64,000 nucleotides of DNA from Candidatus Entotheonellaceae bacterium (GTDB lineage: Bacteria; Tectomicrobia; Entotheonellia; Entotheonellales; Entotheonellaceae): assembly GCA_965238075.1 (NCBI GenBank), contig OZ250173.1:864001-928000 (forward strand), in the 5' to 3' direction. A model generated the notes under the pieces. It had not been told where the DNA came from, did not search any database, and saw only the letters and a list, made by a program, of their open reading frames with translations. Positions 32,869 to 41,025 of this stretch are shown in pieces; the first letter of the stretch is position 1; each line of letters begins with the position of its first letter. Position numbers and translations under genes: made by a program.

Positions 32869-32897
32869 AAAGAGACGGCTGAGGAGGGTTGCGAAGC

Positions 32898-34166
32898 ATG
32901 GCGATTGCCTTGGTTGGGCTCAATCACACGACGGCGCCGGTGGCCGTTCGGGAACGCCTGGCGTTTTCCGACGCCGCGCTCGCCGACGCCCTGACGACGT
33001 TCCGGACGCCGGAGGTCGAGGAGCTGGTGATCCTGTCCACCTGCAATCGGGTCGAGTTTTACATGCAGGGCCGCGACGTGGCGGCTTGCAACTCGGGGTG
33101 CGAGAGTTTCCTGGCCGCCTATCACGCCTTGGCCCGAGAAGACTTCGCTCCCTGCCTCTATTATCTGAGCGAGTTGGAGGCGGTGCGCCATTTGTTTCGC
33201 GTCGCCGCCAGCCTGGATTCCATGGTCCTGGGCGAGCCGCAAATCCTCGGCCAGGTGAAATCCGCCTACTACGCCGCCCGCGATGCCGGCAGAACCGGCA
33301 CCATCTTCCACCATCTCTTTGAACGCACCTTCAATGTCGCCAAGGCCGCCCGTAGCGAAACGGGTATCAGCGACCACGCCGTGTCCGTCAGCTACGCCGC
33401 GGTGCAATTGGCGAAGAAAATCTTCGAGGATCTGCGTCGCCACACGGTTATGATTCTTGGCGCCGGCGAAACCTCGGAGTTGGCCGCGCGCCACTTCGTC
33501 CGGCAGGGGGTGGGTGAGGTCTTCGTGGCGAACCGCACGACGGCGCGCGCCGAAAAGCTGGCGCAGAGCCTCTCCGCCAAGGCTATCCCCTGGGACGAGT
33601 TTCCCGAACACCTGGCGCAAACCGATATTGTCGTCAGCTCGACCAGCGCCCCGAACCTCGTCATCACGCCCGGCATGGTGCAGGAAGCCATGCGGACGCG
33701 GCGCGGGCGCTCCATGTTTTTCATCGACATTGCCGTGCCGCGCGATATCGACCCGGCAGTCAACGCGCTGGAAAACGTTTTCCTCTACGACATCGACGGC
33801 CTGGAAAACGTCGTGGCGGCCAATCGCCGCGAACGCCAGCAGGAAGCGCTGGCGGCTGAGGATATGATCTGGCAGGAAGTGCGCCACTTCCGACAATGGC
33901 TCGCCACCCGCGACGTGGTGCCGACCATCGTGGCGCTGCGGCAACAAGCGGAAGCAACGCGGCTGCGCGAACTTGACAAAGCCCTCGCCAAGCTGGGACC
34001 GCATGACGAGCGGCAGCGTCGTGTCATCGAGGCCCTGACGGTGGCGATTACCAACAAATTCCTGCACGCCCCGACGGTGCACCTGAAGCGCTGCGCCAGC
34101 GCCGGGCAGGCGCAGAACGAAGCGCAACTCCTCCGTGATCTCTTCGATCTGGACCCCTCGCCGTGA
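32898..34166 (+). CDS. hemA: Glutamyl-tRNA reductase
   Basis: GLNHTTAPVAVRE, LSTCNRVE, SLDSMVLGEPQILGQVK, DIAVPRDI. Confidence 0.97.
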   Translation: MAIALVGLNHTTAPVAVRERLAFSDAALADALTTFRTPEVEELVILSTCNRVEFYMQGRDVAACNSGCESFLAAYHALAREDFAPCLYYLSELEAVRHLFRVAASLDSMVLGEPQILGQVKSAYYAARDAGRTGTIFHHLFERTFNVAKAARSETGISDHAVSVSYAAVQLAKKIFEDLRRHTVMILGAGETSELAARHFVRQGVGEVFVANRTTARAEKLAQSLSAKAIPWDEFPEHLAQTDIVVSSTSAPNLVITPGMVQEAMRTRRGRSMFFIDIAVPRDIDPAVNALENVFLYDIDGLENVVAANRRERQQEALAAEDMIWQEVRHFRQWLATRDVVPTIVALRQQAEATRLRELDKALAKLGPHDERQRRVIEALTVAITNKFLHAPTVHLKRCASAGQAQNEAQLLRDLFDLDPSP

Positions 34167-35086
34167 CACCCCCAAAGGCCCACGTTCGTATCGGAACCCG
34201 CGGCAGTCCGCTGGCCCTCTGGCAAGCGCGCTGGGTGGCAACGGCCCTGCAACACCACCACGCCGGATTGCGTACTGAAATCGTCGTCATTAAAACAGCG
34301 GGCGATCGCAACCGCCACGACCCGTTGCCGCAGATCGGCGGCAAGGGACTGTTCGTCAAGGATATCGAAGAGGCGCTCCTGCGTGGGGAGATCGAGGTGG
34401 CGGTGCACAGTATGAAGGACATGCCAACGGACCTGCCGGAGGGGCTGCACGTCGGTGCCGTGCCGCCGCGCGCCGAGGTGCGGGACGCGTTCGTCAGCAA
34501 GGACGGCCGGCGGCTGACACAATTCGACGGGCCGTGGCGTATCGGCACCGGCAGCCTGCGTCGGCAGGCCCAGTTGCTGGCCTTCTCCGAGGCGCTACAG
34601 GTCTGCGACCTGCGCGGCAATGTTGACACCCGGCTGCGCAAACTGCGCCAGGGCGACGTCGACGGCGTGGTGCTGGCAGCGGCGGGCCTGAGCCGCCTGG
34701 GTTTGGCGTCGGAAATCACCGAATTGCTGCCCATTGACGTGATGCTGCCAGCCGCGGGGCAGGGCGCTCTGGCGCTGGAAACGGTTGCCGGGCATTGGGT
34801 GGACGACCTGTTGGCGCCGTTGAACGATACCGCCACGGCCAGCACCGTTGCCGCCGAGCGCGCCGTGCTCCGGCATCTGGGCGGCGGCTGCAGCGTGCCC
34901 ATTGCCGTGCTCGGCCAGTGCCAGGATGAGCACCTGCACGTGCAAGCCCTGGTCAGCAGCCCCGACGGTAGGCGCGCGCTGCGCCGGGAGATCACCGGCC
35001 CGCTCGACCAAGCCGTACCGCTCGGCGAACGCTTGGCCGCGCAGTTGCACGCCGACGGCGCCGGTGACATTCTGCAAGCGCTTTAG
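34163..35086 (+). CDS. hemC: Hydroxymethylbilane synthase
   Basis: IGTRGSPLALWQA, GGKGLFVK, AVHSMKDMP, LRGNVDTRL, LGGGCSVP. Confidence 0.97.
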   Translation: MTPPKAHVRIGTRGSPLALWQARWVATALQHHHAGLRTEIVVIKTAGDRNRHDPLPQIGGKGLFVKDIEEALLRGEIEVAVHSMKDMPTDLPEGLHVGAVPPRAEVRDAFVSKDGRRLTQFDGPWRIGTGSLRRQAQLLAFSEALQVCDLRGNVDTRLRKLRQGDVDGVVLAAAGLSRLGLASEITELLPIDVMLPAAGQGALALETVAGHWVDDLLAPLNDTATASTVAAERAVLRHLGGGCSVPIAVLGQCQDEHLHVQALVSSPDGRRALRREITGPLDQAVPLGERLAAQLHADGAGDILQAL

Positions 35087-35188
35087 CCGAGAACCCTTAC
35101 GGTTTCTCCCTGAACACTCATTTAAATGTAGACATGCTCGCCAGCCTCCAAATGAACCCCTAGCGGCGCAGTGAAGCCCAGGACACAC

Positions 35189-38100
35189 ATGATGGAATTC
35201 GTTGATCTCCAACGGCAATTTCACGACGTGCCAAGAGACGCTGAACTCGAAGAGACGGAGCACCTTGTCTCATTAAGTGAACATGAATCCGGCCCGAGTT
35301 TCGGCTGGTCCAAGTTGTTGGAGTCTATGCGGGTGGTCCTTCTCGCCGAGGCGGGTAGCGGGAAAACCAAGGAGATGGAAGAACAGGCGAAACGCCTCGC
35401 TCAAGAGGGACGGTTCGCGTTTTTCGTGGCGTTGGATGACCTGGAACGAGAGCGTGTGGTCCACATCCTCTCGCCGGACGAGGAGGAGAGCTTCAAACGG
35501 TGGAGAGCGAATGGCCAAGAAACGGCTTGGTTTTTCCTCGACGCGGTGGATGAGTTGAAGCTTACCGGAGGAAAGCTCGGCCGCGCGCTTAATCGACTCT
35601 CAAAAGACCTGAATGGTCTCCTCGATCGTGCCCGAGTAATCATCTCCTGTCGTCCCAGTGACTGGCGCCCCATCGTGGACTTGGACACGGTCCAGAATGC
35701 ACTGCCGGTGCCGCAGAGAAGCGGCCACGCTTCCCTTCAACCATCCGAGGAAATGTTCATCCAGGCGCTCAGGAAAGACTTCGGCCACACGAGCCCTTAT
35801 CGCGACGAAGGCGAAGACTCCGCGGATCGCGAAGGCGTACGAATCGTAAGAATGCTTCCGATGAACCGTACGCAGATCAGGCTCTTCGCGGAACAATCCG
35901 GCGTGAACGACGCGGCGGGCTTTCTCAATGAAATCGACCGAGAGAATGCCGGGACCTTCGCCCAACGGCCCTTGGACTTGAGCGATCTGATCACGGCGTG
36001 GATAAACTCGAGTTGCCTCGGCACTCGGGCACAGCAGCACGAGGCAAACGTCGCGGCCAAGCTGAAGGATGGCCCTGATCGACCCGACAGCGGCGTTCTC
36101 CCCGACGCCAAGGCTCAGCTTGGGGCAGAACGCCTTGCGCTTGCCTTGGCCCTCACCCGCACACGGACCATCCGATCCCCCGAACAGGCGCCGGACATCC
36201 GATCGGCGAAAGGCATTCTTGATGCTGCAGACATCCTTACCGACTGGACGGAAGCGGAACGTCAGGCGCTGCTTCGACGCGCTCTTTTCGATCCCGCGAC
36301 CTACGGGCGCGTTCGCTTCCATCACCGTTCCGTTCAGGAGTATCTCGCTGCTCGACGCCTGCGTGCCCTGCGCGAAGACGGTATGTCCACAAAGGCATTG
36401 TTCCGTCTGTTGTTCGCGGAACGCTACGGCGTCAAGGTGGTGCTACCCTCGATGCGCGCGATCACTGCATGGCTCGCTCTCTGGGATGATGCCGTACGCA
36501 AAGAACTGATCGAGCGCGAGCCGGAAACGCTGATCTCTTTTGGCGATCCGGGGACACTCGACCTTGCCACGCGAAGCGACCTCCTGCGAGCGTTTGTTGG
36601 CAGGTACGGCCAGGGAGATTGGCGCGGCCTGGATTTCACAATCGACAACGTCCTCAGGCTGTCACACCCGGAACTCGCACCGGTAATACGAGAATGTTGG
36701 GGAGACGAGCCGGCGAACCACGATGTTCGTGGCTTGCTGCTTCAATTGATTTGGCAGGGATCGATCAGGGATTGTGCGGATTTGGCTGATGTTGCTGCCC
36801 GCAAAACGGATTGGGACCCCGCCCATCGGATTGCCGCGGTCCGAGCCCTTCTGGCCTGCGGATGCGACGACAGCGTTCGCGAGCTAGCGAACGAGATGCT
36901 GGCCTATCCGGAGTCCTGGCCCGCTGAAATCGTGTACGGCGTCGCGTCGGATCTGTTTCCGGACATCATCACGGTCAAAGAGTTGGCCACGCTGATTGAG
37001 GAGTGGCCCCGCGAATCAGACCAAGTGGCTCGGGACTTTGATTGGGCATTGCGGCAGATCGTCCAGACTATCGAGCCTGGGTCGGCGCAGGCCGTCGACC
37101 TGCGGGGAAAATTGGTAGACCTCATCTGGCACGGACGCGAGGAAACACAGGGACTATACGATATCCGAAGCGAGTTTGAACACCTTGCGCCGGAACTCGC
37201 AAGGTTGTGCGAACGGCAGTTGCCCGAGGTTTCACGCAGCCCTTCCGACGAATTGATCCGCGCCTGCGTCATCGCCTGCCGATTTGGTGGCAAGGAATCG
37301 GGCAGGCAGGAGCCGGTTGGCAGGCTTAGGACGCACTTCGACACGAACTCAAACTGGCGAAACGATGCCTTTTGGGCTGAGTTGGCATTCATGGACAAGG
37401 TCGTCCCGTCTGACGACGACCGGTTACGACTCCATCATGTGGAGATGGATGGCCTTGTAGGTGCCCTCGTGGATGCAGACCGGCCCTGGCTCGAAACAGC
37501 CCTCGAAGACGAGAGCCGCCCGGAACGACAAGTCGTTGCCCTTCATGCCCTCTTGCGGGGCTGGCTTCGACGAGCGGGAGCTGCGTCGGAACTTGATCGT
37601 CTTCGTGCGAAGTTTAAGGACGCCACGTCCTTCGGACGGGTCTTGGCGGAATGGACAGCGTGGCGCGAGCAGGACGAAAAAGTCAAAAGGATGGAACAAA
37701 AGGCGCGGGTTGCAGCCGGTGCTCGGGACGACCGTGAAGCGCAGCGCCTGGAAGATTGGAAGAAGTGGCGTAAGGAAATGCTTGTCGATCCTGCTGACGC
37801 CTTCTCGGCGGAAAAGTTGAAAAGCACGATACACAACCTATACCAGTGGCTCCGTGCAGCCAGACCAAACCAGAGTCGTTACGGCTTGTGGGACAAGGAC
37901 GCGCTGGTACAGGCATTTGGGTTGGAAGTCGTCAACCTCGCCGAGACAGCGTTCCAAGAATTCTGGCGTACTACTCTGCCAATCCTGTGGTCCGCGCGGC
38001 CGGTCAACGAGAGCGGCAGTACGCCCCATGACTGGATTTACGGACTTCAGGGGCTCCTCGCAGAGGCTTCAAAGCCAGGCTGGACGGCTGCCTTGTCCCC

Positions 38101-39628
38101 TGCCGAGGCCCGCACGGCAACGGCTTACGCCACCATCGAATGGAACGGCTTCTCGCCCTTCATCTCGGATTTGGCGGAATTCCATCCCCAGGAAGTGGAG
38201 GCGGTGATTGGCGGCGAAGTGAGTGCGGAACTGAGGGTCGGGGGTTCTCACAGTCAGCTGTCAACCCTCCAGAATCTCGTGTATGCGGACAGTAACCTCA
38301 AACGACTTGTCATCCCTCGTCTGATAACTGAACTGGAATCGTGGCCCGAGCCCTGCACGGAGGATTCGGGGCCGAACCTGGCGCACCATCTCGATCACGT
38401 ACTACGCATTCTGCGCAACGCAAATGATGGGGCGGACCGGGGAGCAATCGCGCAGATGTGTGCCCATCGGTACGAAGCCGATCCAACCGGCCCACTGGCA
38501 CTAAATTGGCTCAGGGGGTTGTTCCAGTTTGATGCGGTACGGGGGACGCAGGCTTTGATCGGACAATTCGCGGACGGCAATGACCCCGGCACTCGCAAAC
38601 GCGCGGTCGAGACACTCGCCGCACTGTTTGGTGGGCGCGACCCCATTGGTTTCGAGATCACGGATACGGGTCAACGCGCTCGTCTCCTTGGTCAACTTGT
38701 CCGGTATGCCTACGCGTTCATCCGACCAGAGGAAGATGAGATTCACGAAGTGGTGTATACACCGAACGCACGGGATAACGCTGAAACGGCTCGGAACTCC
38801 CTGCTCTCCTGGTTACTCGACACGCCTGGAGCCGAGGCCCGCCGTATCGTCCTGGAACTCGCTGAGGAGCAGGATTTCGCGCACTGCAAGGATCGGCTGC
38901 GGCTACTGGCTCGGCAACGAGCGGCCACTGACGCTGAGTTTCCACCGTTTGATGCCAAGGACGTAACTGACCTTGAAGATCGTTACGAGGCTCCTCCGAA
39001 AGACAGGGATGGCCTGTTTGCCGTTATGATGGATCGGCTGGACGACCTCCAACATGACTTCGCCCACAACGATTTCTCAGATCGGCGAACGGTTCAGAGA
39101 ATCGACGCGGAATCGGAGATGCAACGCACGCTTGCCCGGCGAATCAAGGAGAAAGCGAACGGTGCCTACTTGGTAACGCGGGAAGAAGAGGTAGCCGATG
39201 GGAAGCGTACCGACATTCGGCTCTCGACTACCAAGGGTGACCAGAAAGCCGTAATTGAAGTGAAGATCGCGGACAAGGGCTGGACATTGACCAATTTTGT
39301 ACAAGCCCTCCGGGACCAATTGGTAGGGAAGTATTTACGACATGCGAACTGCAAGGCCGGTTGCCTGTTACTGACTTATCACGGAAAAAAGAAGCACTGG
39401 GAACACCCTGAAACCAAAGAACGAATCAAGTTTCCAGAACTCGTTACAATTCTGAAAGACAAAGCGCAGGCTCTTGAGGCGGAAACCCAATATGATGTTC
39501 GCATTGCAGTGTTTGGCCTCGACCTAACCGACCCAACGCCCAATAATCCTGGCTTTGAAGAAAGGATGGCCAAAGCCGAAGACGTCATCGGCCGCTATCG
39601 CAATACGCTGCACGTTTTGGCCAAGTGA
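35189..39628 (+). CDS. STAND/NACHT-like NTPase with C-terminal PD-(D/E)XK nuclease and antitoxin-like tail (putative anti-phage)
   Basis: Walker A AEAGSGKT, Walker B FFLDAVDE, sensor IISCRP, winged-helix RFHHRSVQEYLAA, long helical middle, REEE..KRTDI..IEVK..QL..KYL nuclease; lower GC than the flanks. Confidence 0.8.
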   Translation: MMEFVDLQRQFHDVPRDAELEETEHLVSLSEHESGPSFGWSKLLESMRVVLLAEAGSGKTKEMEEQAKRLAQEGRFAFFVALDDLERERVVHILSPDEEESFKRWRANGQETAWFFLDAVDELKLTGGKLGRALNRLSKDLNGLLDRARVIISCRPSDWRPIVDLDTVQNALPVPQRSGHASLQPSEEMFIQALRKDFGHTSPYRDEGEDSADREGVRIVRMLPMNRTQIRLFAEQSGVNDAAGFLNEIDRENAGTFAQRPLDLSDLITAWINSSCLGTRAQQHEANVAAKLKDGPDRPDSGVLPDAKAQLGAERLALALALTRTRTIRSPEQAPDIRSAKGILDAADILTDWTEAERQALLRRALFDPATYGRVRFHHRSVQEYLAARRLRALREDGMSTKALFRLLFAERYGVKVVLPSMRAITAWLALWDDAVRKELIEREPETLISFGDPGTLDLATRSDLLRAFVGRYGQGDWRGLDFTIDNVLRLSHPELAPVIRECWGDEPANHDVRGLLLQLIWQGSIRDCADLADVAARKTDWDPAHRIAAVRALLACGCDDSVRELANEMLAYPESWPAEIVYGVASDLFPDIITVKELATLIEEWPRESDQVARDFDWALRQIVQTIEPGSAQAVDLRGKLVDLIWHGREETQGLYDIRSEFEHLAPELARLCERQLPEVSRSPSDELIRACVIACRFGGKESGRQEPVGRLRTHFDTNSNWRNDAFWAELAFMDKVVPSDDDRLRLHHVEMDGLVGALVDADRPWLETALEDESRPERQVVALHALLRGWLRRAGAASELDRLRAKFKDATSFGRVLAEWTAWREQDEKVKRMEQKARVAAGARDDREAQRLEDWKKWRKEMLVDPADAFSAEKLKSTIHNLYQWLRAARPNQSRYGLWDKDALVQAFGLEVVNLAETAFQEFWRTTLPILWSARPVNESGSTPHDWIYGLQGLLAEASKPGWTAALSPAEARTATAYATIEWNGFSPFISDLAEFHPQEVEAVIGGEVSAELRVGGSHSQLSTLQNLVYADSNLKRLVIPRLITELESWPEPCTEDSGPNLAHHLDHVLRILRNANDGADRGAIAQMCAHRYEADPTGPLALNWLRGLFQFDAVRGTQALIGQFADGNDPGTRKRAVETLAALFGGRDPIGFEITDTGQRARLLGQLVRYAYAFIRPEEDEIHEVVYTPNARDNAETARNSLLSWLLDTPGAEARRIVLELAEEQDFAHCKDRLRLLARQRAATDAEFPPFDAKDVTDLEDRYEAPPKDRDGLFAVMMDRLDDLQHDFAHNDFSDRRTVQRIDAESEMQRTLARRIKEKANGAYLVTREEEVADGKRTDIRLSTTKGDQKAVIEVKIADKGWTLTNFVQALRDQLVGKYLRHANCKAGCLLLTYHGKKKHWEHPETKERIKFPELVTILKDKAQALEAETQYDVRIAVFGLDLTDPTPNNPGFEERMAKAEDVIGRYRNTLHVLAK

Positions 39629-40014
39629 CGGAACCGGTTTGGATTGAAACGCGGGACGTGCTGGAACTGCACGACCGCCTTCTTGCGTTGGACGGTGGCG
39701 CAACAGGGTTACGTGACAACGGCTTGCTACAATCCGCTCTGGCGCGGCCACGGCAACTTTACGCCTACGCGGATAATCCCAATCTCATCGACATGGCGGC
39801 GGCATACACGGCTGGTATCCTCCGCAATCATCCATTCTTCGATGGTAACAAGCGCACAGGATTCGTGGTCGGTATTCTGTTTCTCGAGTTGAATGGTTAT
39901 AACTTCATTGCTACGGAGGAGGCCGCGACTCAGGCTGTTATAGAACTGGCCGCCGGCACATTCGACGAAGCGGGTTACAGCGCGTTCCTTCGCGCAAATT
40001 CAGAGGCGAAATAG
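39625..40014 (+). CDS. doc: Death-on-curing (Doc/Fic) family toxin
   Basis: GG..GLRD.GLLQSALARP, NHPFFDGNKRTG Doc motif; GTGA overlap with the upstream gene. Confidence 0.93.
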   Translation: MTEPVWIETRDVLELHDRLLALDGGATGLRDNGLLQSALARPRQLYAYADNPNLIDMAAAYTAGILRNHPFFDGNKRTGFVVGILFLELNGYNFIATEEAATQAVIELAAGTFDEAGYSAFLRANSEAK

Positions 40015-40041
40015 GCAAGGTTCACAGCAAGGAGGCAGACC

Positions 40042-41025
40042 ATGCGTTTCCCAGCATACCGGGCGCGTCGGTTGCGTGAGCGGCAAGGGTGGCGCCGTTT
40101 GGTGCAAGAGACGACGTTGAGCCCGAGCGATTTCATCTACCCCATGTTCATCACGCCGGGCAGCCGAGTGCGCCAGGAGATTTCCTCGCTGCCCGGCCAG
40201 TATCACCTGTCCGCCGATATGGCTGTCGAGGAGGTCAAGGACGTCGCAGACCACGGCATTCCAGCGGTGCTGCTTTTCGGCCTGCCCGAGAGCAAGGACG
40301 CCGTTGGCAGGGAGGCGTACAGCGCCTCTGGCGCGGTGCAGCAGGCGATTCGGGCCATGAAGAAAGCCGTGCCCGACTTATTGGTGATCACCGATGTGTG
40401 CCTGTGCGAATACACCGACCACGGCCACTGCGGCGTCGTGGAAGGCGAGCACATCGCCAACGACGCAACCCTGGACCTGCTGTGCCGCACCGCGCTTTCG
40501 CACGTCGAAGCCGGCGCCGACATGGTGGCGCCGTCTGACATGATGGACGGCCGGGTACAGGCCATCCGCGCCAGCCTCGACGGCAAGGGCTACGCGCAAA
40601 TTCCCATCATGGCATACGCTGCCAAGTACGCCTCGACCTTCTACGGCCCCTTCCGGGAGGCCGTACAGTCGGCGCCGCAGTTCGGCGACCGGCGTTCCTA
40701 CCAGATGGCGCCGCCCAACGCCCGTGAGGCGTTGCGGGAAGTGCGGCTCGACATCGAAGAAGGCGCCGACATCGTCATGATCAAGCCGGCCCTACCCTAC
40801 CTCGACATCATTGCACGGGTTCGGCAGACAACGGACGTTCCCCTGGCGGCCTACAACGTCAGCGGCGAATACGCCATGATCAAAGCGGCGGCGGCGAACG
40901 GCTGGCTAGACGAGTCGCGCGCCATCCTCGAAGCCCTGACCAGTATCAAGCGCGCCGGGGCCGACATGATCCTCACCTATCACGCCAAGGAAGCGGTTCG
41001 TCTGCTCCCCACCCTGGACTGGTAA
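40042..41025 (+). CDS. hemB: Porphobilinogen synthase
   Basis: DVCLCEYTDHGHCG, APSDMMDG, FYGPFREA, MIKP, AYNVSGEY. Confidence 0.98.
   Translation: MRFPAYRARRLRERQGWRRLVQETTLSPSDFIYPMFITPGSRVRQEISSLPGQYHLSADMAVEEVKDVADHGIPAVLLFGLPESKDAVGREAYSASGAVQQAIRAMKKAVPDLLVITDVCLCEYTDHGHCGVVEGEHIANDATLDLLCRTALSHVEAGADMVAPSDMMDGRVQAIRASLDGKGYAQIPIMAYAAKYASTFYGPFREAVQSAPQFGDRRSYQMAPPNAREALREVRLDIEEGADIVMIKPALPYLDIIARVRQTTDVPLAAYNVSGEYAMIKAAAANGWLDESRAILEALTSIKRAGADMILTYHAKEAVRLLPTLDW

Follow-up and report, generated by a model that had tools for sequence, protein, structure and literature searches.

The hyoA–doc locus

The window analysed here is a 64,000-nt stretch of contig OZ250173.1 from a Candidatus Entotheonellaceae bacterium (positions 864,001 to 928,000 of the forward strand), and the coordinates given below refer to it. 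Between hemC and hemB it carries an island of two genes, hyoA, which encodes a protein of a NACHT-domain antiphage family, and doc, which encodes a death-on-curing toxin (Table 1). The large frame spans 35171..39628 on the + strand and has 1485 amino acids (aa) when read from the GTG at 35171; the database form, P0003, has 1479 aa and begins at the ATG at 35189. Residues are numbered from the GTG, and six is subtracted to obtain the number in the ATG-start protein. The frame ends in VFGLDLTDPTPNNPGFEERMAKAEDVIGRYRNTLHVLAK, followed by the stop codon. Toxin and tail-bearing carrier are two frames, doc starting at the hyoA stop, and not a single-polypeptide toxin–antitoxin (TA) system.

A preliminary description of this DNA had placed the end of the sensor proper near VFGLDLTDP and had noted that the frame runs on for about 30 residues, until its stop codon overlaps the start of an intact doc in the tetranucleotide GTGA. 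Both observations were borne out. The overlap and the HPFFDGNKR motif of Doc stand in the sequence, the HyoA family profile ends at residue 1453, and the tail is lacking in 102 of 120 HyoA homologs.

The C-terminal tail of HyoA

When the last 100 residues of HyoA were compared by BLASTP with one canonical 76-aa AbrB-type antitoxin, exactly the last 30 residues aligned, and 23 of these 30 were identical (E 5e-16). The canonical AbrB-type antitoxin reads MVELKVRKFGNSLGV...LTPYDPAFEKKMAKAEDIIGRYRNTLHVLAK and shares a 4-nt overlap with its doc. The identity of the tail to the C-terminal ~30 residues of the canonical partners is 77%. It aligns without gaps to 23 canonical antitoxin C-termini, and the retained part starts right after the last AbrB strand. 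The Doc relatives outside the lineage, which are 70-79% identical and come mostly from Acidobacteriota, have an AbrB-type antitoxin of 75-81 aa as partner (80 closest Doc loci). The antitoxin-first order with a 4-nt overlap was found in 30 of the 32 related modules (GTGA in 23, ATGA in 7). Judging from these alignments, the tail and the toxin-binding C-terminal part of the AbrB/MazE-type Doc partners are homologous, and the resemblance of the tail to the canonical antitoxin is far beyond chance.

In place of a small antitoxin with an N-terminal AbrB/SpoVT DNA-binding domain (TIGR02609), the protein upstream of doc is HyoA. No separate antitoxin frame is present near the locus in the open reading frame (ORF) list of the window, and the TIGR02609 model (doc_partner) had no match at the locus and only three weak matches elsewhere in the same genome. 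With the canonical antitoxin as query against the whole 3.35-Mb genome, the tail was the only match (E 1e-9; antitoxin residues 47-76), the next one having an E of 0.52. Because doc is present in a single copy and no other tail-like match to the canonical antitoxin was found, the tail is the only candidate Doc neutraliser in the genome. The preliminary description had claimed the likeness of the tail to the C-terminus of AbrB/MazE-type Doc partners, the loss of the DNA-binding half and the lack of a separate antitoxin nearby, and all three are upheld. Its suggestion to compare the last 30 aa with family models fared less well, as TIGR02609, Pfam and NCBIfam gave no match. The homology is drawn instead from the pairwise and locus comparisons, because family models cannot score so short a segment.

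It had also been considered that an internal ATG at 39566 might yield a free 20-aa peptide. This is unlikely, as the codon is an Ile codon (ATT/ATA) in two of the three orthologous HyoA tails. Moreover, the Met at this place is a conserved residue of the canonical antitoxins and hence no sign of an internal start.

Segments like the tail were also seen in other settings. The loci L093 and L094 (Magnetococcales metagenome-assembled genomes, MAGs), L116, L191 and L196 encode Doc partners, 59-202 aa long as stop-to-stop frames, in which the conserved C-terminal segment follows a non-AbrB N-terminal part; one of these looks ribbon-helix-helix-like, and they are further N-terminal domain swaps on the same neutralising segment. 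Six proteins of 38-43 aa (P0153, P0215, P0250, P0253, P0261, P0273) contain scarcely more than the tail segment and could be either neutralising peptides that stand alone or gene calls cut short by the end of a contig. In the runs X3, X8 and X17, longer contigs match the window only over the 64 bases at 39567-39630, upstream of which they read ...PYDPAFKRK.... They carry canonical antitoxin genes that belong to other organisms or loci; the 3' DNA of these genes is at least 85% identical to that of the tail and diverges past the stop.

Table 1. Positions of the features of the hyoA–doc island, its flanks and the second tail-bearing carrier
Feature	Position	Strand	Basis or state
hyoA, NACHT-domain antiphage-family protein with fused antitoxin-like tail	35189..39628	+	ORF, NF058534 match
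NACHT/STAND NTPase module, aa 55-168	35333..35674	+	Pfam NACHT (sub-threshold), family name, Walker motifs in translation
C-terminal alpha/beta domain, predicted restriction-endonuclease-like (PD-(D/E)xK) fold, aa ~1275-1455	38993..39535	+	AlphaFold2 (AF2) model, structural alignment
Phd-C-like tail, 30 aa, TPNNPGFEERMAKAEDVIGRYRNTLHVLAK, fused in frame to HyoA	39536..39625	+	homology to AbrB-type antitoxin C-terminal segment
GTGA stop/start overlap, hyoA TGA / doc GTG	39625..39628	+	read in sequence
doc, intact death-on-curing (Fic-fold) toxin gene, 129 aa, HPFFDGNKR	39625..40014	+	Pfam Fic, TIGR01550
hemC-hemB spacer with two-gene island	35087..40041		empty sites, composition, synteny
hemA	32889..34166		flanking gene
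hemC	34163..35086		flanking gene
hemB	40042..41025		flanking gene
FRG-TPR-tail and doc	L026 5634-7693 (genome G001); L027 5941-7617 (genome G002)		doc intact in G001, frameshifted in G002

HyoA and its nuclease-like domain

HyoA matched the NCBIfam model NF058534 (NACHT domain-containing antiphage protein HyoA) over its full length with 1354.1 bits, the cut-off being 1200. Positions 1-1428 of the 1430 in the profile correspond to residues 13-1453, and the match ends 32 residues before the stop. The Pfam NACHT model gave an E of 1.7e-4 and 21.9 bits, under its gathering score of 26.7, and the Walker A (GSGKT) and Walker B (FFLDAVDE) motifs are legible in the translation. At E<=1, NACHT, nSTAND_NTPase5 and AAA_16 were the only Pfam models found in P0001. 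The family name suggests that HyoA may protect against phages. No PADLOC model matched HyoA, and the literature search, from which supplements and most subscription journals were out of reach, found no paper naming it.

The AF2 model of residues 1246-1485 (48 aligned homologs; mean predicted local distance difference test, pLDDT, 79) is composed of an alpha/beta core, a low-confidence linker and a lone helix, which is the tail. The tail begins 3 residues past the last strand of the core domain. Structural alignment of this domain by VIA-align (model residues 30-210) gave best Z values of 8.3-7.0, and the top rows were mostly proteins of the restriction-endonuclease fold (LlaBIII, CdiA-CT, BamHI, OkrAI, Can2, BglII, PaqCI, McrBC, FokI among the top structures). 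The best match had a Z of 8.3 and a root-mean-square deviation of 2.9 with 119 residues aligned, a Z near 8 lying in the grey zone of the tool. Foldseek against the PDB returned nothing for the domain at E<=1e-3. The residues D1348, E1363 and K1365 are invariant in 11 fusion proteins. Thus, the label nuclease for the modelled domain is reasonable, short of proven.

Remoter HyoA/EruA-like NACHT paralogs were seen at G001:C1:1036530-1040255 (L036, L038), G003:C26:535-3723 (L037) and G012:C144 (L034). They have open frames of 1328-1411 aa and match the HyoA model with E values of 3e-30 to 6e-51, all under the cut-off.

The Doc toxin and the predicted complex

Doc was recognised by Pfam Fic (9.3e-20) and by TIGR01550 (68.4 bits, cut-off 38.65), and its HPFFDGNKR agrees with the catalytic motif HxFx(D/N)(A/G)NKR. 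Its relatives in the PDB are the P1 Doc structures 3k33, 3dd7 and 3kh2 (E 2e-11). PADLOC gave weak matches of Doc to the candidate systems PDC-M59B (9e-7), PDC-S23 and SoFic (0.0099).

A model of the complex of tail and Doc, such as the preliminary description had proposed, supports binding. The interaction prediction score from aligned errors (ipSAE) was 0.89 in 3 runs, as against 0.02 for the best of 3 controls; the mark applied to this score is reached by 58 of 80 solved complexes and by 2 of 110 mismatched pairs. The contacts agree between runs at 91% or more, and the partner has a pLDDT of at least 90. On the HyoA side, the predicted contacts are made by residues 1459-1484; on the Doc side, residues 74 and 76-77, in the DGNKR loop, are among those touched. 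The model supports a likeness to the solved P1 Phd-Doc complex and is not proof of binding by this copy.

The hemC–hemB island

The GC (guanine plus cytosine) content of the island is 0.50-0.63 and that of its flanks 0.62-0.70. The hemC-hemB spacer is 4955 nt long here, compared with 57 nt in two genomes of the same genus with an empty site (L119, L120). Among the window ORFs, no integrase or transposase gene lies inside the island. No Shine-Dalgarno sequence was seen upstream of the doc start, and promoter and terminator scans of the island gave nothing above chance. A sigma-70-like hexamer pair, TCGACC-17-AATAAT (9/12), lies at 39519-39547, exactly at the junction of HyoA and tail, and is at chance level (2 found, 1.3 expected). 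At the island edges (35087-35140; 40015-40045), the left GTAGACATGC resembles by eye the right GCAGACCATGCG at the hemB start. It looks as if there were a short target duplication, a likeness judged by eye without a chance estimate.

Distribution and conservation of the fusion

The arrangement hemA-hemC-[hyoA with tail, doc]-hemB was found in three other genomes of the same genus, four together with this one. G003, one of these three, has the locus at the start of a contig, where no more than the 3' end of hyoA is present along with doc and hemB. In the named collection, the three fusion loci belong to Candidatus Entotheonella or Tectimicrobiota MAGs. The preliminary description would have downgraded a single-genome occurrence to an accident; the tail plus doc recurs beyond one genome and beyond one carrier, and it is conserved.

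The tail is present in 18 of the 120 HyoA homologs examined. The tail-less ends that were measured reach 1-41 residues past FGLDLT and are unrelated and short, typically ...PLAPAHR-like. In a HyoA tree of 75 homologs, from which the last 45 residues were left out, 17 tail-bearing rows fall into one clade of 20 that includes three nested tail-less rows, and the clade has two tail-less sisters. This distribution amounts to two changes, and none of 500 shuffles was as good. The tree fits one gain of the tail and one later loss.

The 11 fusion proteins are 67-88% identical overall, and 15 of the 30 tail positions are invariant. The identity is 82% for the tail and 74% for residues 1-1455. The ratio of non-synonymous to synonymous substitution rates (dN/dS), taken between this genome (G000) and G005, has values of 0.30 in the tail, 0.24 in the 200 codons before it and 0.19 in doc. 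The value for the HyoA body is given for this pair only, since three of the six body pairs are invalid (indel-misaligned ungapped slices, aa identity 0.12-0.51). Doc is under purifying selection between these two genomes, in both of which its frame and catalytic motif are intact.

A profile of the tail had 16 matches in 251 sampled genomes: six within the genus, in frames of 274-1490 aa, and ten outside it, in frames of 79-120 aa. Against 1.84 billion representatives, the profile had 1798 matches at E<=1e-3. The best 150 of these 1798 have 38-229 aa, the longest of them, P0195, being the tail-bearing C-terminal fragment of a HyoA; apart from it, no further large carrier was found among the best 150. 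A large upstream carrier occurs at 3 of the 80 nearest Doc loci in species genomes, in each case the HyoA fusion, and at 0 of 79 Doc loci from JGI metagenomes. The AbrB pattern used to count canonical antitoxins was too strict, and its counts of 66/79 and 39/150 are underestimates.

A second carrier

A homologous tail was found on an unrelated protein of 556 aa with an FRG domain (2.6e-15) and TPR repeats, which is present in two genomes of the same genus. Its end, ...PPDDPTLETKMAKAEGIMGRYHNTLQILAK, is identical to a canonical antitoxin at 19 of 29 positions (E 2e-12). The FRG-TPR frame also overlaps a doc, the product of which is 77% identical to the Doc of the window. The neighbours are an MmeI-type restriction-modification gene, IS1595 and YhgA-like transposases and an FGE-sulfatase gene. 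The Docs of the fused type form one clade (support 96/83), nested among canonical modules. By this tree, either a cassette of tail plus doc would have moved between carriers, or one lineage-specific module would have been fused twice.

State of the six fusion loci

The doc gene is intact at three of the six fusion loci, namely in this window, in G005 and at the FRG-TPR locus of G001. It is broken at the other three, by a frameshift at the HyoA locus of G001, by a frameshift at the FRG-TPR locus of G002, and in G003 by a stop at codon 10 together with a 3' frameshift. In terms of both genes, the carrier is open and doc intact at three loci, the carrier open and doc broken at two, and the carrier fragmented and doc broken at one; a broken carrier with an intact doc occurs at none. 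The fragmented carrier is HyoA of G003, which is split over three contigs of a 290-contig genome and may be a broken gene or the product of a fragmented assembly. On one of the contigs of this genome (L033, G003:C3, 1465-3327 and 3511-4794), the first 620 residues of HyoA are followed by an opposite-strand fragment of the AcrB family, and the tail-bearing C-terminus lies on a different contig. Either the DNA has been rearranged here, or the assembly is fragmented or mixed.

Proposed origin of the fusion and its consequence

We propose that a canonical AbrB-type antitoxin/doc module once lay directly 3' of hyoA, and that one in-frame deletion removed the hyoA stop codon and the entire DNA-binding half of the antitoxin gene. 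The remnant, a linear Doc-binding segment of ~30 residues (Phd-C-like), would then have become the C-terminal tail of the 1485-aa HyoA. Only in-frame deletions would survive such an event, because only an in-frame product keeps Doc neutralised. Doc would still be translated through the original GTGA overlap, so that about one Doc is made per HyoA. Its translation is probably coupled to that of hyoA, because a Shine-Dalgarno sequence was not seen and the overlap is as in the canonical modules. Doc would be kept inactive on the HyoA tail, which would cover the catalytic HxFxDGNKR loop in the manner of Phd on P1 Doc, and HyoA would be the only antitoxin of Doc in the genome. The minimum outcome would be an addiction lock. 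Neither the tail nor full-length HyoA would be dispensable while doc is active, else Doc would be freed, and freed Doc is expected to phosphorylate EF-Tu and to halt translation. The fusion would be fixed until doc itself decays.

A tethered antitoxin born from a deletion, with an addiction lock as its minimum consequence, is the best explanation of the locus, and we hold it to be rather probable; its core, the tethered antitoxin as such, we would call likely to quite likely. It is carried by the homology of the tail, the lack of another partner, the conservation, the origin in a single clade, the second carrier and the intact catalytic motif. The state of doc and carrier at the six loci, together with the three nested tail losses, is as the addiction lock predicts and suggests that HyoA is not in need of Doc. 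Within the tethered-antitoxin core, the lock by itself ranks ahead of a role of Doc in an integrated defence.

Several points weigh against this explanation. The tail alone (30 and 40 aa) was found by no Pfam or NCBIfam model even at E<=10. The complex score is possibly a memory of the solved P1 Phd-Doc complexes, which are relatives of this Doc. The dN/dS of the tail, computed on 30 codons, is imprecise and reaches 0.86 for the pair G000-G001. The breakage of doc at half of the fusion loci would mean that Doc may be inactive or dispensable here also. The deletion scenario is a reconstruction, and a complete antitoxin-doc pair behind hyoA was found in no genome. The HyoA-doc pair is seen with its DNA context in four genomes only, compared with 18 tail-bearing proteins. 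Finally, binding by the tail, neutralisation, the origin by deletion, translational coupling and the toxicity of Doc are what we infer.

Other explanations of the locus

That the junction is an assembly chimera or a sequencing artefact at 39500-39650 is practically out of the question. The same junction occurs in three other assemblies of the genus and in 18 protein clusters, and it is spanned by contigs from two other studies, one of 3294 nt from run X8 that covers 38900-39816 without gaps and one of 566 nt from run X7 that covers 39278-39843. Run X3, with no single listed piece over 39577-39585, and run X17, with no cover of most of the stretch, are neutral either way. A neutral relic, in which an accidental fusion has left an inactive or unexpressed Doc and a tail that has not yet decayed, is improbable as well. 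It would agree with the frequent decay of doc, with the lack of a visible Shine-Dalgarno sequence and with the chance-level promoter and terminator scans, but the tail is more conserved than the HyoA body down to 67% identity, the frame and motif of doc are intact here and in G005, and the 4-nt coupling overlap has been kept. Moreover, a 220-nt metatranscriptome contig on 39486-39705 (1 mismatch) runs from the end of hyoA through the tail into the start of doc, which is a weak hint at a shared hyoA-doc transcript, DNA being also possible in such libraries. The preliminary description had allowed for an alternative, an accidental junction kept because it silences Doc. The decay of doc and the three tail losses fit such an accident at least as well as they fit integrated defence; the junction itself is not confined to a single genome.

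On the other hand, the locus might be an integrated two-effector immunity, in which HyoA would sense the phage and the tail-held Doc would be a second, translation-blocking effector, a possibility that we regard as doubtful. By a guard or fail-safe logic, for which our confidence is equally low, Doc would then be released when HyoA oligomerises, when it is degraded or when an inhibitor or protease of the phage attacks it. Both carriers are defence-like or lie in a defence context, HyoA by the name of its antiphage family and FRG-TPR by the adjacent MmeI-type gene and transposases; however, TA modules are common passengers of defence islands, so this context is weak. The placing of the tail 3 residues past the nuclease-like domain would let a bound Doc abut the effector domain, and the authors of PMC10440598 propose that the carrier domain of a Phd-C antitoxin acts as a sensor. 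The purifying selection on doc between two genomes with an intact copy and the retention of the fusion at a protein identity as low as 67% also favour this possibility. It is opposed by the persistence of the carrier without Doc, as HyoA in G001 and FRG-TPR in G002 stay open next to a broken doc, by the lack of the tail in most HyoA homologs, including three nested members of the clade, and by there being no known trigger, release step or phage phenotype. Put more generally, short antitoxin peptides could conceivably serve as plug-in tethers by which large immune sensors are armed with ready-made TA toxins, but we do not expect it. HyoA and, independently, FRG-TPR would then dock Doc beside their own effector domain and release it when the sensor fires or when phage counter-defence destroys the sensor, a picture that we offer with the same reserve. 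It is compatible with the evidence, because both carriers look like defence proteins, an old fusion has been conserved, and the Phd-C elements found in the genus are all on large proteins. If it were true, an NLR-like protein would gain a second arm that blocks translation, and its own integrity would be guarded.

Comparison with known systems

We classify the locus as a tethered-antitoxin variant of a type II TA module, in which the sensor has probably replaced the small antitoxin. Type II antitoxins are modular, consisting of a DNA-binding domain and a linear neutralising segment. Here, this segment has come naturally to sit on two large proteins of the same genus, one of them the NLR-like antiphage protein, and has been kept through substantial divergence. 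The locus offers a testable case for two questions, whether TA toxins come to serve larger immune sensors as effectors, and whether addiction logic locks a defence gene into the chromosome.

The closest known system is AbrB/MazE-Doc (TasA-TasB, composite mazE-doc; TIGR02609 and TIGR01550). The canonical mazE-doc pair and its modularity are described in PMC1626090. Both systems have the same Doc family and catalytic motif, the antitoxin-first order, the 4-nt GTGA/ATGA overlap and C-terminal ~30 residues at 77% identity. In contrast, the AbrB/SpoVT DNA-binding domain, and hence any autoregulating repressor, is absent from this locus, and the neutralising segment is attached to a 1455-residue protein with a NACHT and a nuclease-like domain, whereas there it is attached to a DNA binder of ~45 residues. 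In P1 Phd-Doc, the toxin is related (E 2e-11), and the C-terminal helix of the modelled partner likewise lies over the active-site loop of Doc. The placing of the C-terminal helix of Phd over this loop is its mode of Doc inhibition. Nothing here corresponds to the N-terminal domain of Phd (YefM fold), and no sequence match was obtained between the tail and Phd.

PanA-Phd-C:Doc of Corynebacterium doosanense (NetFlax) shares a C-terminal Phd-C-like element on an unrelated carrier and a separate Doc. According to PMC10440598, the Phd-C element of the PanA antitoxin is required to neutralise Doc, and SUMO-Phd-C suffices, whereas the free element does not. A large unrelated carrier would thus be compatible with neutralisation, since SUMO-Phd-C is sufficient in that work. 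The carriers differ, being Panacea there and STAND/NACHT or FRG-TPR here; Pfam at E<=1 found no Panacea in P0001. Moreover, the carrier here is 20 times larger and has a putative enzymatic effector of its own.

With the bacterial NACHT/Avs STAND proteins (bNACHT25), HyoA shares the NACHT NTPase, a helical repeat region and, as far as the structural alignment suggests, a putative effector of the restriction-endonuclease fold. Such effectors of bacterial NACHT proteins are described in 10.1101/2022.07.19.500537. The main text of this survey names no Doc, Fic or antitoxin, and the tail and the coupled toxin are extra here. In the literature within the same reach as above, no paper was found in which a STAND/NACHT protein bears an antitoxin peptide directed at a separate toxin. 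CapRel(SJ46) shares a neutralising element that is covalently joined to a larger immune protein, and a regulation that is post-translational and does not pass through a free labile antitoxin. In CapRel, toxin and antitoxin are reportedly one polypeptide, and the antitoxin domain is said to be the phage sensor. The present locus differs in that the toxin is a separate protein and the carrier has NTPase and nuclease-like domains of its own.

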